A stretch of 13,314 bases of DNA from an archaeon (GCA_041677685.1 JBAYPN010000020.1:1-13314), one strand, 5' to 3'. Shown: positions 2,657 through 12,376, numbered from the stretch's first letter. Made by a program: numbers and translations. Notes: generated by a model not told the origin, from the sequence alone.

Positions 2657-2932
2657 TTATTTATTTTTCACAATAAATTCAACAATTTCTTCAACAGGCT
2701 TATTAGTTGCTGTTGCAATTTCTGTAATTATTGTTTTTAAAAGAGCAGGATTAATATCTTTTCCATTTTTACATAATGGAATTTTATGCCCCTTTCCATC
2801 GGTAAAAACACGATGTTTACTTTGTGCCTTTTTTTCTTCAAACCCTAATTTTTGTAAAGCTCTATTCATTTGTTTATGTGTAAGAATTGGCATTTTCTTA
2901 AAGCAATTAATACTTCCTATTGGTTTTGCCAT
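2657..2932 (-). CDS. hicA: HicA-like (YcfA/HicA family) putative mRNA interferase toxin with a 13-aa N-terminal extension.
   Basis: MPILTHKQMNRALQKLGFEEKKAQSKHRVFTDGKGHKIPLCKNGKDINPALLKTII fits the HicA pattern (k.l.kaLek.GF......GSH..f.......vP.h..kdl..gtlk.Il). A strong SD, AAGGTGA, lies 6 nt upstream of the ATG at 2932. The gene starts 14 nt after the stop of the HD gene. Confidence 0.55.
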   Translation of the reverse strand: MAKPIGSINCFKKMPILTHKQMNRALQKLGFEEKKAQSKHRVFTDGKGHKIPLCKNGKDINPALLKTIITEIATATNKPVEEIVEFIVKNK

Positions 2933-2946
2933 AATCTGTCACCTTT

Positions 2947-3507
2947 TTAAAATTCCATATTTTCTTTAATTCCATTTAAGATTGCTTCAATAAATTTATT
3001 AATCTCTATCTTTGTTTTTTTTTCACAAACATATATTTCTTCTCTAGACACTGATGCTGCAAATGCCTTATCTTTTAATTTCTTAGTAATTGATGAAACT
3101 TTTGCAAGTTGTACATCCTTGTCAGGTCTCATCAAAACATATGCTCTAATAATTCCTGTAAGTCCATCACAAGAATAAAGAAGGTGTTCAATTTCTTTTT
3201 TTCTTTCAATTTTAAGAGCATCATTATGTGTTTTTATTATTTCAATAATGTCTTTATCTACATTTTCTAAATTTAATATTCTTTCTCCAACAACACAATG
3301 TTTAGTAATATCATTTTCATATTTCTCAATATCAATATCATGCAAGGTTCCAACAACAAACCAGTAATTTTGTTCTTCTTCATTTTTATTAAGGTATTTG
3401 GCTAGACCCTTCATTCCATACCCAACCATCAAACAATGTTCACGGTTTGCTTTTTCTTTAACATGTCTGTTAAGTATCTCTATAGTTTTTTCTTTTGTTG
3501 GAATCAT
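2947..3507 (-). CDS. HD-domain (HDIG-type) metal-dependent phosphohydrolase.
   Basis: The His...HD...H spacing is present: REHCLMVGYGMKGLA, then GTLHDIDIE, then KTHND. The ~186 aa size is typical of stand-alone HD hydrolases. Confidence 0.8.
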   Translation of the reverse strand: MIPTKEKTIEILNRHVKEKANREHCLMVGYGMKGLAKYLNKNEEEQNYWFVVGTLHDIDIEKYENDITKHCVVGERILNLENVDKDIIEIIKTHNDALKIERKKEIEHLLYSCDGLTGIIRAYVLMRPDKDVQLAKVSSITKKLKDKAFAASVSREEIYVCEKKTKIEINKFIEAILNGIKENMEF

Positions 3508-3556: not shown

Positions 3557-4075
3557 TTAATTTGTTCTTTCTACATTTATGTTAGTAACATCATTTTCTT
3601 TTAAAAATACTTCAAAAGAAATTTCTTGTTTTGCAGGCAATATTTCTACAAAGTTATTTAGTTTAATATTAGTTTCAAGATTAAGAGTAAACACAATCAT
3701 GTTTTCTTTCTTACTAATATTTAAGTTCCCAAAATTAATATATTCCTTTTGTTTTTCATAGAATCTTTGGTTTCTAATTTCTTGTTCAATTATGACAACA
3801 TTATTTATGTTATCAAAAGTAATAACATTTGTTGGTTCTATGTTTATCTTTTTATAAGATCCAGTCTCTGCTGTTTTTAGATCAATTAATATGTTATTAA
3901 TAATTGTTAATGTGTTTTTATTATTTTTATAAATTTGCATATCTTCAAGTGAATTAAAATATCCAACAATAAAGGCAATCATAATTCCCATAAACATAAT
4001 TCCAATTATAAAGATTAATATTCCAGTAAACATTGATGCTATTCCTTTTTGGTTTTTAAACAATACTTTAATCAT
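3557..4075 (-). CDS. Small archaeal prepilin-like protein: class III signal peptide plus a ~130-aa domain, with no lectin modules.
   Basis: The N-terminus is MIKVLFKNQKG|IASMFTGILIFIIGIMFMGIMIAFIVGYF, a short basic leader ending in KG followed by a long hydrophobic helix. The following domain shares the pattern seen after the helix in the two upstream genes (..I..L.DL.....GS..KINI.....ITFD..NN..I). It starts 3 nt after the stop of the 520-aa gene. Confidence 0.7.
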   Translation of the reverse strand: MIKVLFKNQKGIASMFTGILIFIIGIMFMGIMIAFIVGYFNSLEDMQIYKNNKNTLTIINNILIDLKTAETGSYKKINIEPTNVITFDNINNVVIIEQEIRNQRFYEKQKEYINFGNLNISKKENMIVFTLNLETNIKLNNFVEILPAKQEISFEVFLKENDVTNINVERTN

Positions 4076-4078
4076 ACT

Positions 4079-5641
4079 TTATCTAATTTCTATTTCTCCA
4101 ACAGTAATTAATTTTTCTATATTATTAATTGTGTTATATTCAGTTTTAATCCAATCATCTGATCTTGCAATTTTTGAAATTCTAAGCTCGCAGATTGCTC
4201 CTGTCAAAGAACTTCCAATTGTAACATTTGTGGTATTACTTAATGCTAAGTTTGAAAATAGTTTTGGGTTATATTTTTGTTCACCATTAACATATAATCT
4301 TCCATAATTATTACTAATTGTAAATGCTATTTGATTTTCTGTATATTCTGTGAAATTTGTGTTGTATTCATTACCTGAAAAATTATTCCCACCTCCAGCA
4401 TACCCACCTTCAGTATCCCCAAAACAAGTGTATTTAAATCTATTACCATTATTCCTATTATCATATTTAAACCAAATTCCTGTGTGTGGGTTAGGAGAAT
4501 CAGGTTGTCCTTTTAAAAAAATAGAAATTAATTTTCCTGTGTTTGTTGAATAATCTAATTCATTAAAATAATTTACTGATGATATTGTTACATTTTCTAA
4601 TGTGTTTAAAGATTCAGAATTGTTAACAACTAAATATTGGTTTTTTGAGGAATCTAAGACAACACAATTTCTATTATTTACTTTTGTAAATACTGCATTG
4701 TTTACATTGTTAACTATATCATTATTATTATTTGTTGAATCAAAAGAATCATTAAAGTGTAATACCATTAAAAAATCATCATCCCAAGTCTGAGTATCAT
4801 TTGTTTCAGTCCCATTCTCATTCCCATAATACATATAGATATTAGTATTTTTATTCCCATCAAGATCACCTGGAATTTTTACAAAAGCAATTAGCTCTCC
4901 ACTTTCAGAGTTATAATCCTCAATTTCTCTTGAAAGCTTTGTAAATCCATCAGCACTTGTAAAAACAACATCACTACCATCACTTTTCCCCTTCTGTTTA
5001 AGGGCAAGAGATGTTAAAGAGATAGGTACAGGGAAGTTAGTTACTGTTCCTGAAACATAATTAGAATCAATTATTAGAAGTTGCCTGTACTCCCAATTAC
5101 TATTATACCAGTTATTTGTTCTTTCTCTTTTTGGAACAATATCAATTTGTATTTTTTCAGTTTGAGAATTATAATCAAAATAAGAAACAGTAATTGTATT
5201 TTTTCCTTGTTTTAAATTAAGATTATTGCAATTTAGATTAATTAGATTATTAGAATTATTTATTTCTTTTTCAAAAAATACTTTTCCAAGTTTCTTATAT
5301 AAAATAATATTATTAACATTCACATTTTGGTCTGTTCTAAAATTAGAACCATAAACTACACTTCCAATTATCTTATTATTTTCACAATCAATTGTAAGCT
5401 CTTCAGGGTTATTAACAATTACCTCTTGTCTTTGAAATCTGTTGTTTGAAACTTCTTGTATTTTTTTGTCAAGACTATCTATTGTTTTTAACATTAATTC
5501 ATAATTGTTCTTTTGTTTATTTTTTTCAATAATGTTTAGAGATCCACTAATAACTATTGCTAAAACAGACAGAGCAAGCAATATATAAAAAATATATGCA
5601 ATTAAGTTAACTACGCCTTTCTTGTTTTTAATCAGATTCAT
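4079..5641 (-). CDS. Prepilin-like surface protein carrying one DUF2341 module and one LamG/ConA-like (Laminin_G_3-type) lectin module (520 aa).
   Basis: The leader is MNLIKNKKG|VVNLIAYIFYILLALSVLAIVISGS. The DUF2341 signature spans aa 178-285: WYNSNWEYRQLLIIDSNYVSGTVTNFPVPI...DGSDVVFTSADGFTKLSREIEDYNSESGELIAFVKIPGDL...NIYMYYGNENG. The LamG-type module spans aa ~290-505 and ends in GAICELRISKIARSDDWIKTEYNT. The gene overlaps its upstream neighbour by 14 nt. Confidence 0.8.
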   Translation of the reverse strand: MNLIKNKKGVVNLIAYIFYILLALSVLAIVISGSLNIIEKNKQKNNYELMLKTIDSLDKKIQEVSNNRFQRQEVIVNNPEELTIDCENNKIIGSVVYGSNFRTDQNVNVNNIILYKKLGKVFFEKEINNSNNLINLNCNNLNLKQGKNTITVSYFDYNSQTEKIQIDIVPKRERTNNWYNSNWEYRQLLIIDSNYVSGTVTNFPVPISLTSLALKQKGKSDGSDVVFTSADGFTKLSREIEDYNSESGELIAFVKIPGDLDGNKNTNIYMYYGNENGTETNDTQTWDDDFLMVLHFNDSFDSTNNNNDIVNNVNNAVFTKVNNRNCVVLDSSKNQYLVVNNSESLNTLENVTISSVNYFNELDYSTNTGKLISIFLKGQPDSPNPHTGIWFKYDNRNNGNRFKYTCFGDTEGGYAGGGNNFSGNEYNTNFTEYTENQIAFTISNNYGRLYVNGEQKYNPKLFSNLALSNTTNVTIGSSLTGAICELRISKIARSDDWIKTEYNTINNIEKLITVGEIEIR

Positions 5642-8141
5642 TTTTCTCTAATTCTCCAGTTTTAAAAAGATAAGCAGAATATTTCTGAGTAAGGTATTCT
5701 GTTTTTAACCAATCATCTGACCTTATGGTGCTTGAGATCTTAAGTTCATCAATCATCCCTTTAAAATATTCAGCTCCACTATAAGCTTTACCAAGCATTA
5801 ACAAGCCATTTGAAATATTATCCTCTCTTGTAACTTCTACTTCTCTACTCTTATGATCGTCTACATATAGTTTAAGAGTCTGTTTATCATATGCCCAACA
5901 AACATAATGATTTTCATGTTTTAAAATATATTCACCATATGTTGTGTGATATCCTGCTGAAGGTAAGCCATTACGTAAATAGACTCCAAAGTTAGGATTT
6001 GTAAAATTTATTACATAATTAGAGCCACTGTTATAAACTACTCTTTTATATTCTTCAAATTCTTTATTTACCCACATACAATAAGTTATTTCTTCAATAA
6101 CATCTTGGCTAATGGAAAGGTAATCATCAGTTCCATCAAATTTAATTCCTCTTCCAATAATTCCATAAACATCTGTGTTTGAATCTATATTAAAATCAAA
6201 ATTATAAAGAAAGCCATTATGTTTATTTTTTGTAGAATCAAAATAACCAAGTCCATTTGTGGTTGGCTTTTCTGAAAAATGTAAAACTGTATTATAATAT
6301 TTGTCCCAAGAATCAGTATCATTAGTTTCATTTGCTTGATTGTTTCCAAAGTATATGTAGATTGAGCTATTTAGATTTGCATAGATTTTTGGGATCTTAA
6401 CATATGCAATTAATTTTTTTCCTACCTCTTCAACTTCTCCAAGTGAGTAAAAGTTATCTGGATCATTTTGATTTTCATATTCAGTTTTTATCCAATTGTT
6501 TGTTTTTGCTTTGCTTGATATTCTAAACTCATCAATATATCCAAAATGTGTGTAATAAAGATTGTTTAGATAACCAAAACCAAGATACAAAGAAGTGTTA
6601 TTCTGTTGTAAATAATCTGACACTCTGTTCTGTTCTCCAGAAAGCACACCATCAACATAAATGTACTCTTTATTTTCTTCTGAGTTATAAACATAGGTTA
6701 TAAGATGCCACTGATCAATATCAAGAACAGGGTTTGTTGTAAAAAAGTTTCCATTTCCATTCTCATATAATATTTTTTTACTTGCTTGAATTAAAACTCT
6801 CCCAACATCATTAGCATTATGTTTATACCAAATCCCTGAATAATAGCTTAAGGTTTCTCCACTCCAGTTAACCCAAGCACTAACACTCAACTGATTCCAA
6901 TTTCCAGCTTGACTAGCATCTCCAAAATCAATATATTCATTTCCATCAAAGTAATTTGCTTTTCCAATCTTTCCAGAAACATCTGTGTTTGAATTATTAC
7001 CTAAGTCAAGATCATTATAAGTCCCATTAAGATTATTTAAAGTAGAGTCTTTATATGCTCCAACAACACCATTACCTCCATCTTGACTTAAATGTTGGAC
7101 AATCTTGTAATCCTCAGTCCACACAAATTTAGAATTTTCAACCCTTTGGTTCTTGTCTCCAAAAAACATATAGATAACTGTGTCTTCATCTTTTAAAAGT
7201 TCAGGAACCTTTACCCAAACATTAAGTTTTCCACTCTCAAAATTATAATCTTCAATTTCTCTTTCTAAAATTGTTAGACCATCAGAAAGTGTAAAGTAAA
7301 TGTCAAGCCCATCTTCTCTTGTATGATTAATAAGGTCACTATTGGTTATTGAGACTAAAACAGCAAAATCATTTAAATTATCATATACTTTGTTAGAGTC
7401 AATTGTAATTTTTTGTTTATAGATTAAATTTTGAGAAAAATAATCAATTTCTCTTTTTAATTTAAAAGTTCCATTGTCCGTAGTAAAGACAATATCCTTT
7501 CCATCTTCTTTTGCAAAATAACCTAAGTCTTTATCAATTATCTCTACAGGAATTGTAAAGTTATTTAAGTCTGCAGATATAAAATTAGAATCTAATAATA
7601 ATCTTTTTCTATATTTCCAATTTTCATCATACCAAGAGACCTCTTCTATTGCTTGTGTACTTATCTTCAATTTATTTTTTTCAAGTTTAGTAATATAAAG
7701 TTCAATTTTTTTATTGTTTATTAGTTCATCTGAAATTATGTTAATGTTAGTATATTCAATTCCAGCAACTAGTTTTTGTTTATCTCTGTAAGTGTATAAA
7801 CCATTCTTTATAATTTCTGTTGTTTCTTTATAAAATTTAGAATTTGTAATTTGGTAGATTTCTATTTTATTTTGATTTGAGTCAATAAGTAAATATAGTT
7901 TATCTAGATCTATGTTTATTTTAGTTGTTGATCCATTTGGTAGTGCCATAACCTCTTTTATCTTTTGATCTAAAGTATTTATATAGTTTTTAGACAACTC
8001 ATGTTTTTGTTTTGCTTGTTGGTTTGAGACACCAGGAATAACACCATTCATAATTAATGCAACTGTTAAACTTATAACTAAGATTACCATTGTATAACCT
8101 AATATCTCAGATGCTCCTTTATTATTTTTTTTTAAGCTCAT
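5628..8141 (-). CDS. Large prepilin-like surface protein with two DUF2341 modules, one nested inside the other, and two LamG/ConA-like lectin modules (837 aa).
   Basis: The leader is MSLKKNNKG|ASEILGYTMVILVISLTVALIMNGV, which resembles the archaeal Pilin_N domain. DUF2341 N-half copies lie at aa 170-236 and 240-299, and C-half copies at aa 300-335 and 575-615. LamG modules at aa ~345-560 and ~617-820 end in FGYIDEFRISSKAKTNNWIKTEYENQ and FKGMIDELKISSTIRSDDWLKTEYLTQ. Confidence 0.8.
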   Translation of the reverse strand: MSLKKNNKGASEILGYTMVILVISLTVALIMNGVIPGVSNQQAKQKHELSKNYINTLDQKIKEVMALPNGSTTKINIDLDKLYLLIDSNQNKIEIYQITNSKFYKETTEIIKNGLYTYRDKQKLVAGIEYTNINIISDELINNKKIELYITKLEKNKLKISTQAIEEVSWYDENWKYRKRLLLDSNFISADLNNFTIPVEIIDKDLGYFAKEDGKDIVFTTDNGTFKLKREIDYFSQNLIYKQKITIDSNKVYDNLNDFAVLVSITNSDLINHTREDGLDIYFTLSDGLTILEREIEDYNFESGKLNVWVKVPELLKDEDTVIYMFFGDKNQRVENSKFVWTEDYKIVQHLSQDGGNGVVGAYKDSTLNNLNGTYNDLDLGNNSNTDVSGKIGKANYFDGNEYIDFGDASQAGNWNQLSVSAWVNWSGETLSYYSGIWYKHNANDVGRVLIQASKKILYENGNGNFFTTNPVLDIDQWHLITYVYNSEENKEYIYVDGVLSGEQNRVSDYLQQNNTSLYLGFGYLNNLYYTHFGYIDEFRISSKAKTNNWIKTEYENQNDPDNFYSLGEVEEVGKKLIAYVKIPKIYANLNSSIYIYFGNNQANETNDTDSWDKYYNTVLHFSEKPTTNGLGYFDSTKNKHNGFLYNFDFNIDSNTDVYGIIGRGIKFDGTDDYLSISQDVIEEITYCMWVNKEFEEYKRVVYNSGSNYVINFTNPNFGVYLRNGLPSAGYHTTYGEYILKHENHYVCWAYDKQTLKLYVDDHKSREVEVTREDNISNGLLMLGKAYSGAEYFKGMIDELKISSTIRSDDWLKTEYLTQKYSAYLFKTGELEKNESD

Positions 8142-8224
8142 TTATTTTTTCTGTTTTTACGTATAGTTTTTCTGTTTTTCTTAATTAAAATATATTTAAG
8201 TAATTATAAGTAATTATATTTGTT

Positions 8225-8242
8225 TTAGAAAATCTTTAAAAA
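8225..8242 (+). promoter_or_regulatory. BRE/TATA-like promoter motif TTAGAAAATCTTTAAAAA, upstream of 8276..8746.
   Basis: A purine-rich stretch is followed by CTTTAAAAA, ending 33 nt before the ATG at 8276. Nearly the same 18-mer recurs at 8732..8749 and 9612..9628. Confidence 0.35.
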
Positions 8243-8275
8243 GGTATTTACTACTAGGTTTATTGTGAATGACCT

Positions 8276-8880: not shown

Positions 8881-9468
8881 TTAAAATAATGGGATGTCTA
8901 TTCCTAATTTCTTAATTAAAAAATAATACACAATTATTATTAAAATTATTATAAATGTAAATATTAATAATTGATATTTGTTTACATGTTTATGATACTT
9001 TTTTCTATCCTTATGTAACTTTACATCCATTAGTTCATCAGCAAACAAAATGGATAAAAAAGTTCCAATCCCTGAAAGAATTATTATTATCCAAAAGGGC
9101 CAAGGGTTTGTAAGTATTTGTTTAAATAATGATAAAAGTATTGTGGAGTTATAGATTTGCGGATTTAGAAAAAAGAAAAAAACATTAACAATAGCAGCAA
9201 CAATCCAAACAATTATTTCTGTATATACCATTTTCAATTTTGTAATTAACCTTATTGGAAAATCTATCAAAAAACCAGCATCTGCAATTGGTGTACAGAA
9301 CACAAAGAATGACCAAGTAAGAATTGTAATTGAAATTCCGTCTTTAAATCCAAGCTTTAGACTTGTCAATAGAAAGTACACAATTATAACTAATAATATA
9401 AATAAAAACTTTCTAAGAGTATGTTTTTTAGTTTCGTGTTTTAGATTAAATTTTTCTTTTGATTTCAT
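8881..9468 (-). CDS. Polytopic integral membrane protein of unknown function (195 aa, about 5-6 predicted TM helices).
   Basis: There are several long hydrophobic stretches: FLFILLVIIVYFLLT, ITILTWSFFVFCTPIA, IIVWIVAAIVNVFFFFL, PFWIIIILSGIGTFLSILFA and LLIFTFIIILIIIVYYFLI. I recognise no family. Confidence 0.6.
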   Translation of the reverse strand: MKSKEKFNLKHETKKHTLRKFLFILLVIIVYFLLTSLKLGFKDGISITILTWSFFVFCTPIADAGFLIDFPIRLITKLKMVYTEIIVWIVAAIVNVFFFFLNPQIYNSTILLSLFKQILTNPWPFWIIIILSGIGTFLSILFADELMDVKLHKDRKKYHKHVNKYQLLIFTFIIILIIIVYYFLIKKLGIDIPLF

Positions 9469-10208: not shown

Positions 10209-10751
10209 TTATTCTTTAAGTAAATAATAAAGTTCTTTGTTTAGAACAATATTATTTACTTTTCCTAATTTTTCTTTTTTAATAATATTATTGTCCTCTA
10301 AATTTTGAATAATTCTATGTACTTTAATTTTGCTTAAACCTTCAATATAGGTAAGTTCATATTGTCTAATTCTACCATCATTTTCTAATATTTTTTCAAT
10401 TATTTTTTTCTCAGTATTTGAAAGTAAATTTAAAATTATTTTATTTTTTGATTTAATTTTTAATTCTGTTTTATATATTTTTTCAGACATAATATAATAT
10501 GTTAAAATTCCAACAAAGAGCCCAAGAAATGCACTGATTGGTATTAGATAAAAAACATAATTTGGTTTTGAAGGCTTATTTAGAATATAGTCTTTTAATT
10601 CATCAAATGAATAAAGATCAATTGTTGTAACATCAATATTCCTTTCACTTCTATTTATTTTCTGTTGTGAGGAGATAAATAAAAGTAATGATGTTATTAT
10701 TAAAATAAATGAGAGTAATAAAGCTAGTCCAGTAATTATCTTTTTATTCAT
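10209..10751 (-). CDS. Membrane-anchored winged-helix (wHTH) transcriptional regulator of the archaeal COG2512-like architecture.
   Basis: The first TM segment is MNKKIITGLALLLSFILIITSLLLFISS. A ~35-aa loop follows, then the second TM segment YVFYLIPISAFLGLFVGILTYYIM. The C-terminal part, LLSNTEKKIIEKILENDGRIRQYELTYIEGLSKIKVHRIIQNLEDNNIIKKEKLGKVNNIVL, looks like a MarR/TrmB-type wHTH. Confidence 0.6.
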   Translation of the reverse strand: MNKKIITGLALLLSFILIITSLLLFISSQQKINRSERNIDVTTIDLYSFDELKDYILNKPSKPNYVFYLIPISAFLGLFVGILTYYIMSEKIYKTELKIKSKNKIILNLLSNTEKKIIEKILENDGRIRQYELTYIEGLSKIKVHRIIQNLEDNNIIKKEKLGKVNNIVLNKELYYLLKE

Positions 10752-11498: not shown

Positions 11499-11570
11499 GC
11501 TTCTGTGGCTCAGTGGTAGAGCGCAACCTTGGTAAGGTTGAGGTCGCGGGTTCAATTCCCGCCAGAAGCT
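11499..11570 (+). tRNA. tRNA-Thr (anticodon GGU), discriminator U73, no encoded CCA.
   Basis: Folded by hand. The acceptor is GCUUCUG/CAGAAGC, followed by UG. The D arm is GCUC-AGUGGUA-GAGC. The anticodon arm is CAACC-UUGGUAA-GGUUG, with the anticodon at 11531-11533. The variable loop is AGGUC. The T arm is GCGGG-UUCAAUU-CCCGC. The discriminator U is at 11570. Confidence 0.92.
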
Positions 11571-12376
11571 TGTCAAACTATTTCTCTTGATGCCTTTAAA
11601 ATAAAGGTTTTAGAAGAAAATCACTCTAAAGGATACTATAAGTCTCTTGCTAAATTAAACAGCATCTTTAGTAAAAATATATATAAAAACCATCAAGAAC
11701 TGCTTGAAGATTATAAAAAAAACATAGATTTGGTTAATAATACTCAAAGTAGTAGAAAAATTGTGTCAAAGTTTTTAAATTACCTTAAAGATGAAGGATT
11801 CTCTCAAGAAAACATAGTTTCTTGTAAAAAACTATTAAAAAAGGATATAAATTTTTCAAATGACACTTATGTTCCAACAGATCAAGAAATAAAAGTTACT
11901 TTATCTAAGCTAAGAGAAGATTTAAAGCCATTATATCTTCTTTTCTTATTTAGTGGAATAAGGGTGTCAGAAGGCATATATACCTTTTAAACAACTTAAA
12001 TAATTTAAAGATACAGTGTAAAGATAATTACTGCAAGATACACCTAGATTACAATAGACACAATAAACGCTCCTTTTTTTGTTATATACCTCACTTTATT
12101 TACACACAGATAGGTGTCCAGAAAACAGAACTAAACAATATTCGTATATTTATTAAAAGAAATAAGCTTATTCCTTTAAAGTACTGCAGAAAATGGTTTT
12201 ACACTAAATGTATTGAGTTAGGTATACCAGAGTCTATTGCTGATTTTTATGAAGGAAGGGTTGCAACTTCTGTTGGTTCTAACCATTATCTTTCAAGACA
12301 GGCATTGGCTGATAAGAACTACATTAAATTATTAGATTTCTTTAATAATTTTTATAATGAGATAAAGGAGGTATAA
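11520..12376 (+). pseudogene. Tyrosine recombinase/integrase (archaeal SSV-like type) that lacks an ATG start, is open through the 3' half of tRNA-Thr, and is broken by a 1-nt frameshift near 11976-11990.
   Basis: Frame A (11520..11990) encodes ...KFLNYLKDEGFSQENIV...YVPTDQEIKVTLSKL...PLYLLFLFSGIRVSEGIYTF*, with the box I Arg in SGIRVSE. A frame shifted by -1 is open from 11954 to the TAA at 12374-12376. It encodes ...IYLLNNL...CKIHLDYNRHNKRSFFCYIP...LKYCRKWFYTKCIELGIPESIADFYEGRVATSVGSNHYLSRQ..., which carries the box II-like R, a GR, and the catalytic-type HY. Confidence 0.7.

Follow-up and report, generated by a model that had tools for sequence, protein, structure and literature searches.

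Which part of an archaeal locus that joins prepilin-like N-termini to lectin-like modules is conserved, and what might its products do at the cell surface? The question is raised by three consecutive genes at positions 3557-8141 of a 13,314-nt stretch of archaeal DNA (GCA_041677685.1 JBAYPN010000020.1:1-13314; hereafter the window, with a GC content of ~25%), which a sequence-only reading had described as an operon of three prepilin-like proteins, two of them fused to DUF2341 and LamG lectin modules. The in silico analysis reported here points to a trio of pilin-like heads of ~170 aa, kept in a fixed A-B-C order, as the conserved unit, with the lectin modules as variable cargo. It is moderately probable that the trio represents type IV minor-pilin-like subunits, which an A24 peptidase processes and whose helices join them in a complex that primes and caps a pilus-like fibre and displays adhesive cargo.

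The genes were named A837, B520 and C172 after the lengths of their products (837, 520 and 172 aa) and lie at 5628..8141, 4079..5641 and 3557..4075, respectively, all on the minus strand. The ORF (open reading frame) check returned exactly these coordinates, a 14-nt overlap between A837 and B520, a 3-nt gap between B520 and C172, and the N-termini quoted earlier; apart from these 3 nt, the ORF layout leaves no intergenic gaps within the operon. A837, an A-type modular pilin-like protein recognized by ORF, motif, hydropathy and Pfam evidence, starts with the leader MSLKKNNKG/ASEIL (the slash marks the predicted cleavage site) and carries a head followed by nested DUF2341-LamG units. B520, a B-type modular protein (ORF, Pfam and AlphaFold), starts with MNLIKNKKG/VVNLI, followed by a head, a DUF2341 and a LamG module, while C172 (ORF and AlphaFold), which starts with MIKVLFKNQKG/IASMF, is a bare C-type protein. 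All three show the class III signal-peptide layout that had been proposed for them, i.e., a basic leader of 9-11 residues ending in K-G and then a hydrophobic stretch of ~25 residues with a mean Kyte-Doolittle value of 2.0-2.7. The junctions, at residues 8-10, read KG/A in A837, KG/V in B520 and KG/I in C172, and each protein has this single hydrophobic stretch and no further transmembrane-like segment.

The heads behind these N-termini are where the conservation resides. A shared paralogous domain of ~100 aa had been claimed for the three proteins; in pairwise comparison it is only weakly visible (BLAST E about 0.01; shuffle z 1.7-3.5), and it gained support at the profile level once orthologues were included. 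In helix-free profile-profile comparison, the A and C heads matched with 95% probability (E 4.5e-8), A and B with 72% (E 3.5e-5), and B and C with 34% (E 4e-4), which suggests that the A, B and C heads are distant paralogues. Orthology with the trio of locus L007 is one to one (A-A 3e-14, B-B 1e-18, C-C 9e-20), and the helix-free cross-pairs are not significant. The orthologue pairs join A837 to a 991-aa protein, B520 to a bare 167-aa protein, and C172 to the N-domain of the 633-aa cargo-bearing protein P0021. The three-gene synteny, which the sequence-only reading had proposed to test, extends to related archaeal metagenome-assembled genomes (MAGs), in which the order A-B-C is kept. In a related species (GCA_029563035.1; an 813-kb JGI contig), the trio is followed in turn by an HD protein, PDDEXK_1, RadC, TGT, an A24 peptidase and SRP54, as in the genome of the window, with TGT 64% and the A24 peptidase 49% identical between the two.

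A word-indexed homologue search with the N-domain profile returned only the query protein's own clusters, so the extent of the family was revealed by an exhaustive HMMER profile search with the N-domain alignment, which found 381 clusters at 50% identity, 72 of them at E <= 1e-10. The head domain starts at residue 1 in almost all family members. Among the members listed, ~60% are bare (150-210 aa) and ~40% bear cargo (up to 1650 aa), and both kinds occur in all three head types. The family appears to be restricted to MAGs deposited as 'archaeon' and 'Candidatus ainarchaeum sp.'. The latter name is also carried at NCBI by cluster members >=90% identical to the window proteins, in agreement with the DPANN origin suggested earlier, and is read here as Iainarchaeum (Iainarchaeota, kingdom Nanobdellati, i.e., DPANN); the exact proteins are labelled "archaeon". 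The exact trio proteins were found on at least nine contigs (ENA, JGI, Logan and NCBI), including the 88.5-kb contig JAQUEP010000002.1 of GCA_028685115.1.

Further trios were found by B-head scans of species-representative genomes and JGI metagenomes, and their cargo differs from locus to locus. The window carries two nested DUF2341-LamG units on A (837 aa), DUF2341 and LamG on B (520 aa) and nothing on C (172 aa). In L007/L017, A is a 991-aa protein with DUF2341 and LamG, B is bare (167 aa) and C (633 aa) carries CHB_HEX_C_1/Fn3_assoc, DUF2341 and LamG, while all three proteins are bare in L014 and L020 (A ~167 aa, B 165-170 aa, C 166-170 aa). In L015, A (181 aa) and B (~162 aa) are bare and C (327 aa) carries CHB_HEX_C_1/Fn3_assoc. 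In L019, A (517 aa) has DUF2341 and LamG, B has at least 198 aa up to the contig end, and C is not seen where the contig ends. In L016, A is not on the contig, B has 168 aa, and C has at least 239 aa up to the contig end. In L021, A has 991 aa, and B (167 aa) and C (166 aa) are bare. Across 57 long members, the cargo comprises Laminin_G_3 (26), DUF2341 (14) and CHB_HEX_C_1/Fn3_assoc (8), as well as PKD, fibrinogen_C, NHL/WD40/PQQ propellers, DUF285 and InlB-type repeats, which looks like typical adhesin material. The emphasis of the sequence-only reading on a lectin operon was therefore right in that the modules are present, while the lectins are not the conserved part, since in related genomes each of the three subunits may have cargo, lack it or carry another kind.

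Two side observations concern the composition of these trios. The C-type gene differs between strains of one species: at L007:10001-11902 it encodes the 633-aa fusion of a C head with CHB_HEX/Fn3_assoc, DUF2341 and LamG, and at L021:10504-15657 a bare 166-aa C head is followed, ~800 nt on, by a separate 1282-aa NHL beta-propeller ORF, with the HD gene beyond. As well, in one sub-lineage an ATPase gene of 428-429 aa stands immediately before the B-type gene (L019:4153-5442 and L016:96-1382). The ATPase of L019, which lies between the A-type and B-type genes, was assigned to AAA_14 and DUF4143 by Pfam, and that of L016 to the AAA type by its similarity to the L019 sequence; both may be mobile or defence-type genes.

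Cargo also varies between co-occurring strains. Compared with its counterpart P0002 in L010, a sister strain from the same metagenome, B520 is 87-95% identical at residues 1-280, 57% at 281-320, only 17-35% at 321-480, i.e., in the LamG core, and again 82% over the last 40 aa. In the same comparison, A837 is uniformly ~85% identical and the flanking genes 73-85%. In the strain-variable stretch at residues 281-480 (4202..4801, minus strand), the putative ligand-binding module has undergone cassette replacement, and such strain-level replacement suggests that binding specificity is being retuned.

The modules themselves are firmly identified. In both large proteins, all Pfam matches lie above the gathering cut-offs (23.4 bits for DUF2341 and 27.6 bits for Laminin_G_3), and the accessions given for these families by the sequence-only reading, PF10102 and PF13385, proved correct. 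A837 has two Laminin_G_3 matches (1e-26; 94.3 bits) and two DUF2341 matches (4e-11; 43.5 bits), B520 has DUF2341 (1e-8; 35.8 bits) and Laminin_G_3 (1e-7; 32.8 bits), and for C172 the Pfam search gave no family. Membership in TafC (Tat-fimbriae) was considered and rejected, as the NCBIfam match is weak (30 bits vs a cut-off of 410) and falls on the LamG part only.

A837 is not a plain tandem, since one DUF2341-LamG unit is nested in another. Alignments and profile comparison place the leader, the hydrophobic helix and the A-type beta head in residues 1-165 (7647..8141, minus strand, as for all segments of this gene). The N-terminal half of the outer DUF2341 follows in residues 166-240 (7422..7646) and ends in REIDYF, after which a complete inner DUF2341-LamG unit, residues 241-573 (6423..7421), is inserted in the outer DUF2341 hairpin. 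Residues 574-837 (5631..6422) then supply the C-terminal strands of the outer DUF2341 (LIAYVKIP...IYIYFGN) and the outer LamG, with the Pfam Laminin_G_3 match at 669-811. With the insert removed (166-240 plus 574-837), the alignment of the outer unit to that of B520 runs from end to end (E 6e-37). The inner unit can be aligned over its full length both to the B520 unit (E 2e-30) and to the outer one (E 3e-34). On reading the sequence, the 991-aa A-type orthologue of L007 seems more deeply nested than A837. A large insertion at the same DUF2341 hairpin was also observed in an unrelated DUF2341 protein (P0007, 825 aa), and domain insertions may favour this hairpin loop throughout the DUF2341 family.

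Structure prediction, which had been proposed as a check, returned a long N-terminal helix in both proteins modelled. C172 was modelled with confidence (pLDDT 89, pTM 0.76) as a helix of 66 residues (2-67) followed by ~10 beta strands, which is the "lollipop" layout of pilins and agrees with its description as a lectin-less pilin-like partner. B520 combines a helix at 7-66 with a DUF2341 beta-sandwich (pLDDT 95-98) and a LamG jelly-roll. The Foldseek neighbours of this LamG in the PDB are LamG-type modules with carbohydrate- or receptor-binding roles (E 1e-9 to 1e-6); neighbours of B520 include a trans-sialidase lectin domain, clostridial neurotoxin Hc domains and a phage tailspike. A sequence search of the PDB with A837 gave noise only.

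Taken as minor-pilin-like subunits of a fibre, A, B and C would be made with a class III signal peptide, and the A24 peptidase of the genome is predicted to cut after K-G, leaving a mature subunit in which a long hydrophobic helix carries a small beta head. By analogy with GspI/J/K, PilI/J/K and PilA/B/C of S. sanguinis, the three subunits would assemble via their helices into a staggered complex, which would prime and cap either a fibre resembling a type IV pilus or a short stalk. The adhesive cargo would be grafted on the C-termini of the subunits, here with two nested DUF2341-LamG units on A, one on B and none on C. The LamG jelly-rolls would bind glycans, or some other ligand at the surface of a partner cell or a substrate, while the DUF2341 beta-sandwich would act as a spacer, as the Ig (immunoglobulin)-like module of S. 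sanguinis PilC does. Exchange of cargo by recombination between subunits, species and strains would then retune binding specificity. Of this account, the gene structure, the domains, the leader motif, the fold layout, the peptidase gene, the conserved trio and its variable, exchanged cargo are shown in silico, while cleavage, the complex and its place at a tip, the fibre and the ligand belong to the proposed mechanism. We infer, in line with the sequence-only reading, that the archaeon may live as an episymbiont and that glycans of its host may be what is recognized.

The A24 prepilin peptidase that this mechanism calls for was found on the same contig, ~10 kb from the operon and ~6.5 kb outside the window, beside TGT and SRP54, so that the lack of such a gene, which the sequence-only reading had named as a threat to the hypothesis, is no longer a concern. 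The gene (L011:1790-2644) encodes 284 aa with both catalytic Asp motifs (YTD and GGGD), matches PF01478 at 1.6e-11, is named 'A24 family peptidase' at NCBI, and keeps its position in related genomes. Between SRP54 and the peptidase gene stands an ORF of 320 aa for which Pfam gave no match (L011:825-1787); it is not at that position in the related L007.

Several observations weigh against a pilus-type function of the trio. The proximity of the peptidase may be mere conserved housekeeping synteny with SRP54 and TGT. In all trio loci, taken as distinct loci and searched to ~10 kb around the gene matched or queried, Pfam context tables, a Walker-A regular expression and small-ORF scans disclosed no FlaI/PilB ATPase, TadC/FlaJ platform protein or small major pilin. 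Likewise, neither a FlaI/PilB ATPase nor TadC nor any small ORF of class III was present in the ~35 kb of this genome read around the trio. A837, B520 and C172 fall below the threshold of every pilin hidden Markov model (HMM), and the recommended search for Pilin_N gave none of the three a match to PF07790, or to TIGR02537, at E <= 1. Their relatives match pilin models only below threshold (arch_flag_Nterm at 15-17 bits vs a cut-off of 20; ComGC, GspG, GspI and DUF7289). The head of C172 matches no solved pilin, the best Foldseek hit against the PDB having E 0.056 and all hits being Ig/Fab noise, and the N-domain sequence profile likewise gave noise only against the PDB. The head of B520 was modelled at low confidence (pLDDT 31-52), because the alignment is shallow there. 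Moreover, glycan binding by the LamG modules is putative.

The first alternative starts from the missing machinery. The proteins might be processed by the peptidase and yet form no long fibre, being instead part of a short surface-anchored assembly, bindosome-like or pseudopilus-like, which displays lectins at the envelope. In its favour, none of the loci examined has an assembly ATPase, a TadC or a major pilin beside the trio, and non-pilus surface proteins also use archaeal class III signal peptides, among them the sugar-binding proteins of the Sulfolobus bindosome. Even the bindosome, which is discussed in PMC4858521, needs a type IV pilus (T4P)-type ATPase and a platform protein, however, and the closest likeness of a fixed trio in which some members are bare is to priming or tip complexes (PMC9934059, PMC12918778). 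This alternative is thus considered unlikely, though as regards length alone the present data fit a short stalk and a long fibre alike.

A second and more improbable alternative holds that the N-termini are ordinary uncleaved Sec signal anchors, which would make the proteins type II membrane-tethered adhesins unrelated to type IV filaments. One N-terminal hydrophobic helix per protein, pilin HMMs that are not reached and a head without a solved pilin homologue are all compatible with it. The leader argues otherwise, as in 120 of 141 family members (85%) the long uncharged stretch is immediately preceded by [KR][GA], vs ~9% expected by chance. Family-wide, position -2 is K in 88% and position -1 is G in 78%, and the leaders are very short (median 6 aa). 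A FlaFind-like rule, our own implementation and not FlaFind itself, demanded a short charged leader, [KR][GA] at -2/-1, a permitted +1 residue and ~20 hydrophobic residues; it was run on ORFs of >=60 aa and then >=35 aa in the window and five heavily overlapping fetched loci, covering ~35 kb of distinct sequence of this genome and ~22 kb of a related species. The operon proteins were the only matches at >=60 aa, and likewise at >=35 aa. In addition, the repeated sub-threshold matches are specifically to pilin N-terminal models, the A24 peptidase is encoded, and the conserved trio includes cargo-less members of 170 aa that have no obvious role as independent anchors.

How far the pilin identity itself can be taken is set by the same searches. 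Since the thresholds of the curated pilin HMMs are not reached, the proteins are called pilin-like and not members of Pilin_N. As the head has no match among solved pilins, the resemblance is to the overall pilin-fold layout of helix plus beta head, and with no significant Foldseek match for C172 the head is unassignable to a known pilin family. Weak matches of the window proteins on the helix are to ComGF (0.011) and UpsA (0.15), and A837, together with the A-type orthologues inspected, has a Glu at +3 past the predicted cleavage site. DUF7289 was rejected as the identity of the head, given that the matches inspected individually span the helix region only and are sub-threshold; no literature on DUF7289 was found.

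That the ConA-like modules are catalytic (glucanase- or lyase-type), making the operon a set of surface-tethered polysaccharide-degrading enzymes, is hardly credible: the ConA-like lectin/glucanase superfamily does include enzymes, and the top Foldseek matches lie inside glycoside hydrolases such as AbnA, sialidases and galactocerebrosidase, but the matched parts are non-catalytic lectin-like or carbohydrate-binding module domains (AbnA domain 4, 5hon_A, TMt 0.70), the Pfam match is Laminin_G_3 and not a glycoside hydrolase or polysaccharide lyase family, and the cargo of relatives is adhesin material (PKD, fibrinogen_C, propellers and InlB repeats).

The interpretation of the trio as a complex of minor-pilin-like subunits gains from comparison with known systems. 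The sequence-only reading knew of no characterized pilin with this domain architecture, which has to be corrected, since PilC of S. sanguinis is one, with a pilin moiety, an Ig-like module and a ConA-like lectin (PMC9934059). PilC binds sialylated glycans and glycosaminoglycans and acts in a PilA/PilB/PilC trio of one small minor pilin and two modular pilins, for which a tip complex has been modelled with the modules as "open wings" (PMC9934059). This is the closest characterized system: in both cases three class III proteins are co-encoded, with bulky adhesive modules on two and a third that is small and bare, and the pilin, Ig-like beta-sandwich and ConA-like lectin of PilC parallel the head, DUF2341 beta-sandwich and LamG found here. 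The S. sanguinis proteins differ in being bacterial, in their leader and in a pilin moiety without sequence similarity to the trio; PilB carries a vWA module and not a lectin. Their genes belong to a complete pil locus that also supplies major pilins and machinery, whereas the trio stands alone, with no recognisable pil locus. Moreover, the cargo of S. sanguinis is fixed, whereas here cargo moves between subunits, nests and is swapped between strains.

Among archaea, Makarova et al. (2016) described clade 1 T4P loci with two large DUF2341 proteins, for which they predicted a role as tip adhesins (PMC4858521). In M. maripaludis, transposon insertions in the DUF2341 gene of the epd locus were recovered in a transformation-defect screen (PMC10133366). 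These DUF2341 proteins (arCOG03508) of methanococcal and thermococcal clade 1 (Epd) loci resemble the trio in being archaeal, predicted pilus-tip adhesins (PMC4858521; PMC10133366) whose partners are minor pilins of class III and a prepilin peptidase dedicated to them. Their genes lie inside T4P loci with ATPase and TadC, unlike the trio, and the A/B/C head family is distinct from them. LamG-like proteins have been found to be expanded in DPANN, some of them linked to T4P loci (PMC5498576).

The GspI/J/K and PilI/J/K (PilV/W/X) proteins likewise form a small, fixed set of distinct minor pilins that primes and caps and presents a large adhesin, PilC/PilY1 or MshQ (PMC12918778), MshQ being a predicted PilY1-like tip adhesin (PMC12918778). 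In those systems the adhesin, PilY1 or MshQ, is a non-pilin protein of its own that beta-strand complementation keeps in place, whereas here it is covalently fused to pilin-like subunits, and no homology of the heads to GspI/J/K was detected. Membership of A837 and B520 in the PilC/PilY1/MshQ family of tip adhesins, large non-pilin proteins with either a beta-propeller or a strand complementing PilK/MshP at the C-terminus, was rejected, as both have their own pilin-like N-termini and end in LamG modules. In TM7x (Nanosynbacter lyticus), lectin-like minor pilins mediate host binding, and PilX2 is needed for efficient binding (PMC11623550). The likeness lies in the C-terminal jelly-roll or propeller lectin-like domains of PilX1/PilX2, in an ultrasmall host-dependent lineage and in the importance of host cell-wall glycans (PMC11623550). 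TM7x differs in being bacterial (Patescibacteria) and in having these pilins within defined T4P loci and with different folds; any host dependence of the archaeon studied here is putative. The modular adhesive minor-pilin principle is thus already known; what appears to be undescribed is the head family, a fixed A-B-C trio that lies apart from any pil locus, cargo that moves freely and nests among the subunits, and the replacement of a LamG core between strains.

Outside the trio, the DUF2341-LamG unit is widespread in bacteria and archaea, mostly behind Sec-type signals, often in tandem and at times fused to MotA/ExbB. It has been joined to type IV pilin N-termini independently and more than once, in P0035 to a canonical archaeal Pilin_N (PF07790; ...SLG/VSEVVGTIILVG) and in P0060 to the N-terminus of a bacterial prepilin (G/QSLIELLVAISIG, Glu at +5). 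A further homologue, P0072, is named MshQ by its source.

A bolder and rather doubtful extension would take the trio as an undescribed, lineage-specific DPANN 'universal adaptor', i.e., a self-contained three-pilin tip complex whose heads are unrelated to any solved pilin, on which any adhesin (LamG, DUF2341, propellers, PKD or fibrinogen-like) can be grafted or nested by recombination and in which cassette swaps between strains, like that of the B520 LamG core, set the specificity for a host or partner. If true, the trio could be read as a genetic marker of attachment partners in uncultured DPANN-host pairs. Little is known of how DPANN archaea recognize and attach to their partners, and annotation is lacking for most of their surface proteins; the locus offers a concrete, testable candidate. 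The family of 381 clusters, in addition, provides a handle for surveys of adhesin repertoires across metagenomes. Should the trio be shown to form a tip complex, archaea would share the 'modular pilin' principle established in a Gram-positive bacterium, and a defined structural role could be given to DUF2341; should there be no fibre, the family would still represent an unusual use of prepilin-type anchoring for surface display.

Upstream of A837 lies an AT-rich, divergent intergenic region of 134 nt (8142..8275) with TATA-like runs, which is likely the promoter of the three-gene operon. A sigma-70 promoter and terminator scan gave 46 sites vs 45 expected and 0 terminators, and is uninformative, being a bacterial-type scan applied to archaeal DNA. 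On the other side, 49 nt downstream of the trio, a gene on the minus strand (2947..3507) encodes a 186-aa HD-domain protein (Pfam HD 1.3e-6). The HD gene follows the trio on the same strand in L007/L017, L010, L014, L020 and L021 and not in L015; its products in relatives are of about 186 aa (L007:11927-12490, L014:1788-2351, L020:2493-3071 and L021:15664-16227). Directly downstream of the HD gene of the window, a HicA-like toxin gene (2657-2932, minus strand; Pfam 2.8e-6) was found, with no obvious HicB partner called beside it. Two further minus-strand genes are kept beside the operon across strains, one for a 195-aa protein with multiple transmembrane segments and a weak match to a Voltage_CLC fragment (8881-9468), and one for a membrane-anchored winged-helix protein (10209-10751; DUF7343/HTH_24).

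Farther away, the window contains a tRNA-Thr (11499-11570), inside which a 153-aa ORF (11529-11990) begins. This tRNA-Thr and the nearby integrase fragment raised a mobile-element origin of the trio, which was rejected, because the trio sits amid conserved chromosomal synteny of HD, PDDEXK_1, RadC, TGT, A24 and SRP54 across species. In other strains, the tRNA-Thr position is occupied by a Phage_integr_3 integrase of 274-287 aa, and the DNA past the integrase position is wholly strain-specific, with a restriction-modification system in L002, DUF4411/Peptidase_M78 and methyltransferases in L001, and other genes in L004 and the window. The tRNA-Thr site looks like an integration hot spot, at which the integrase of the window appears to be truncated.

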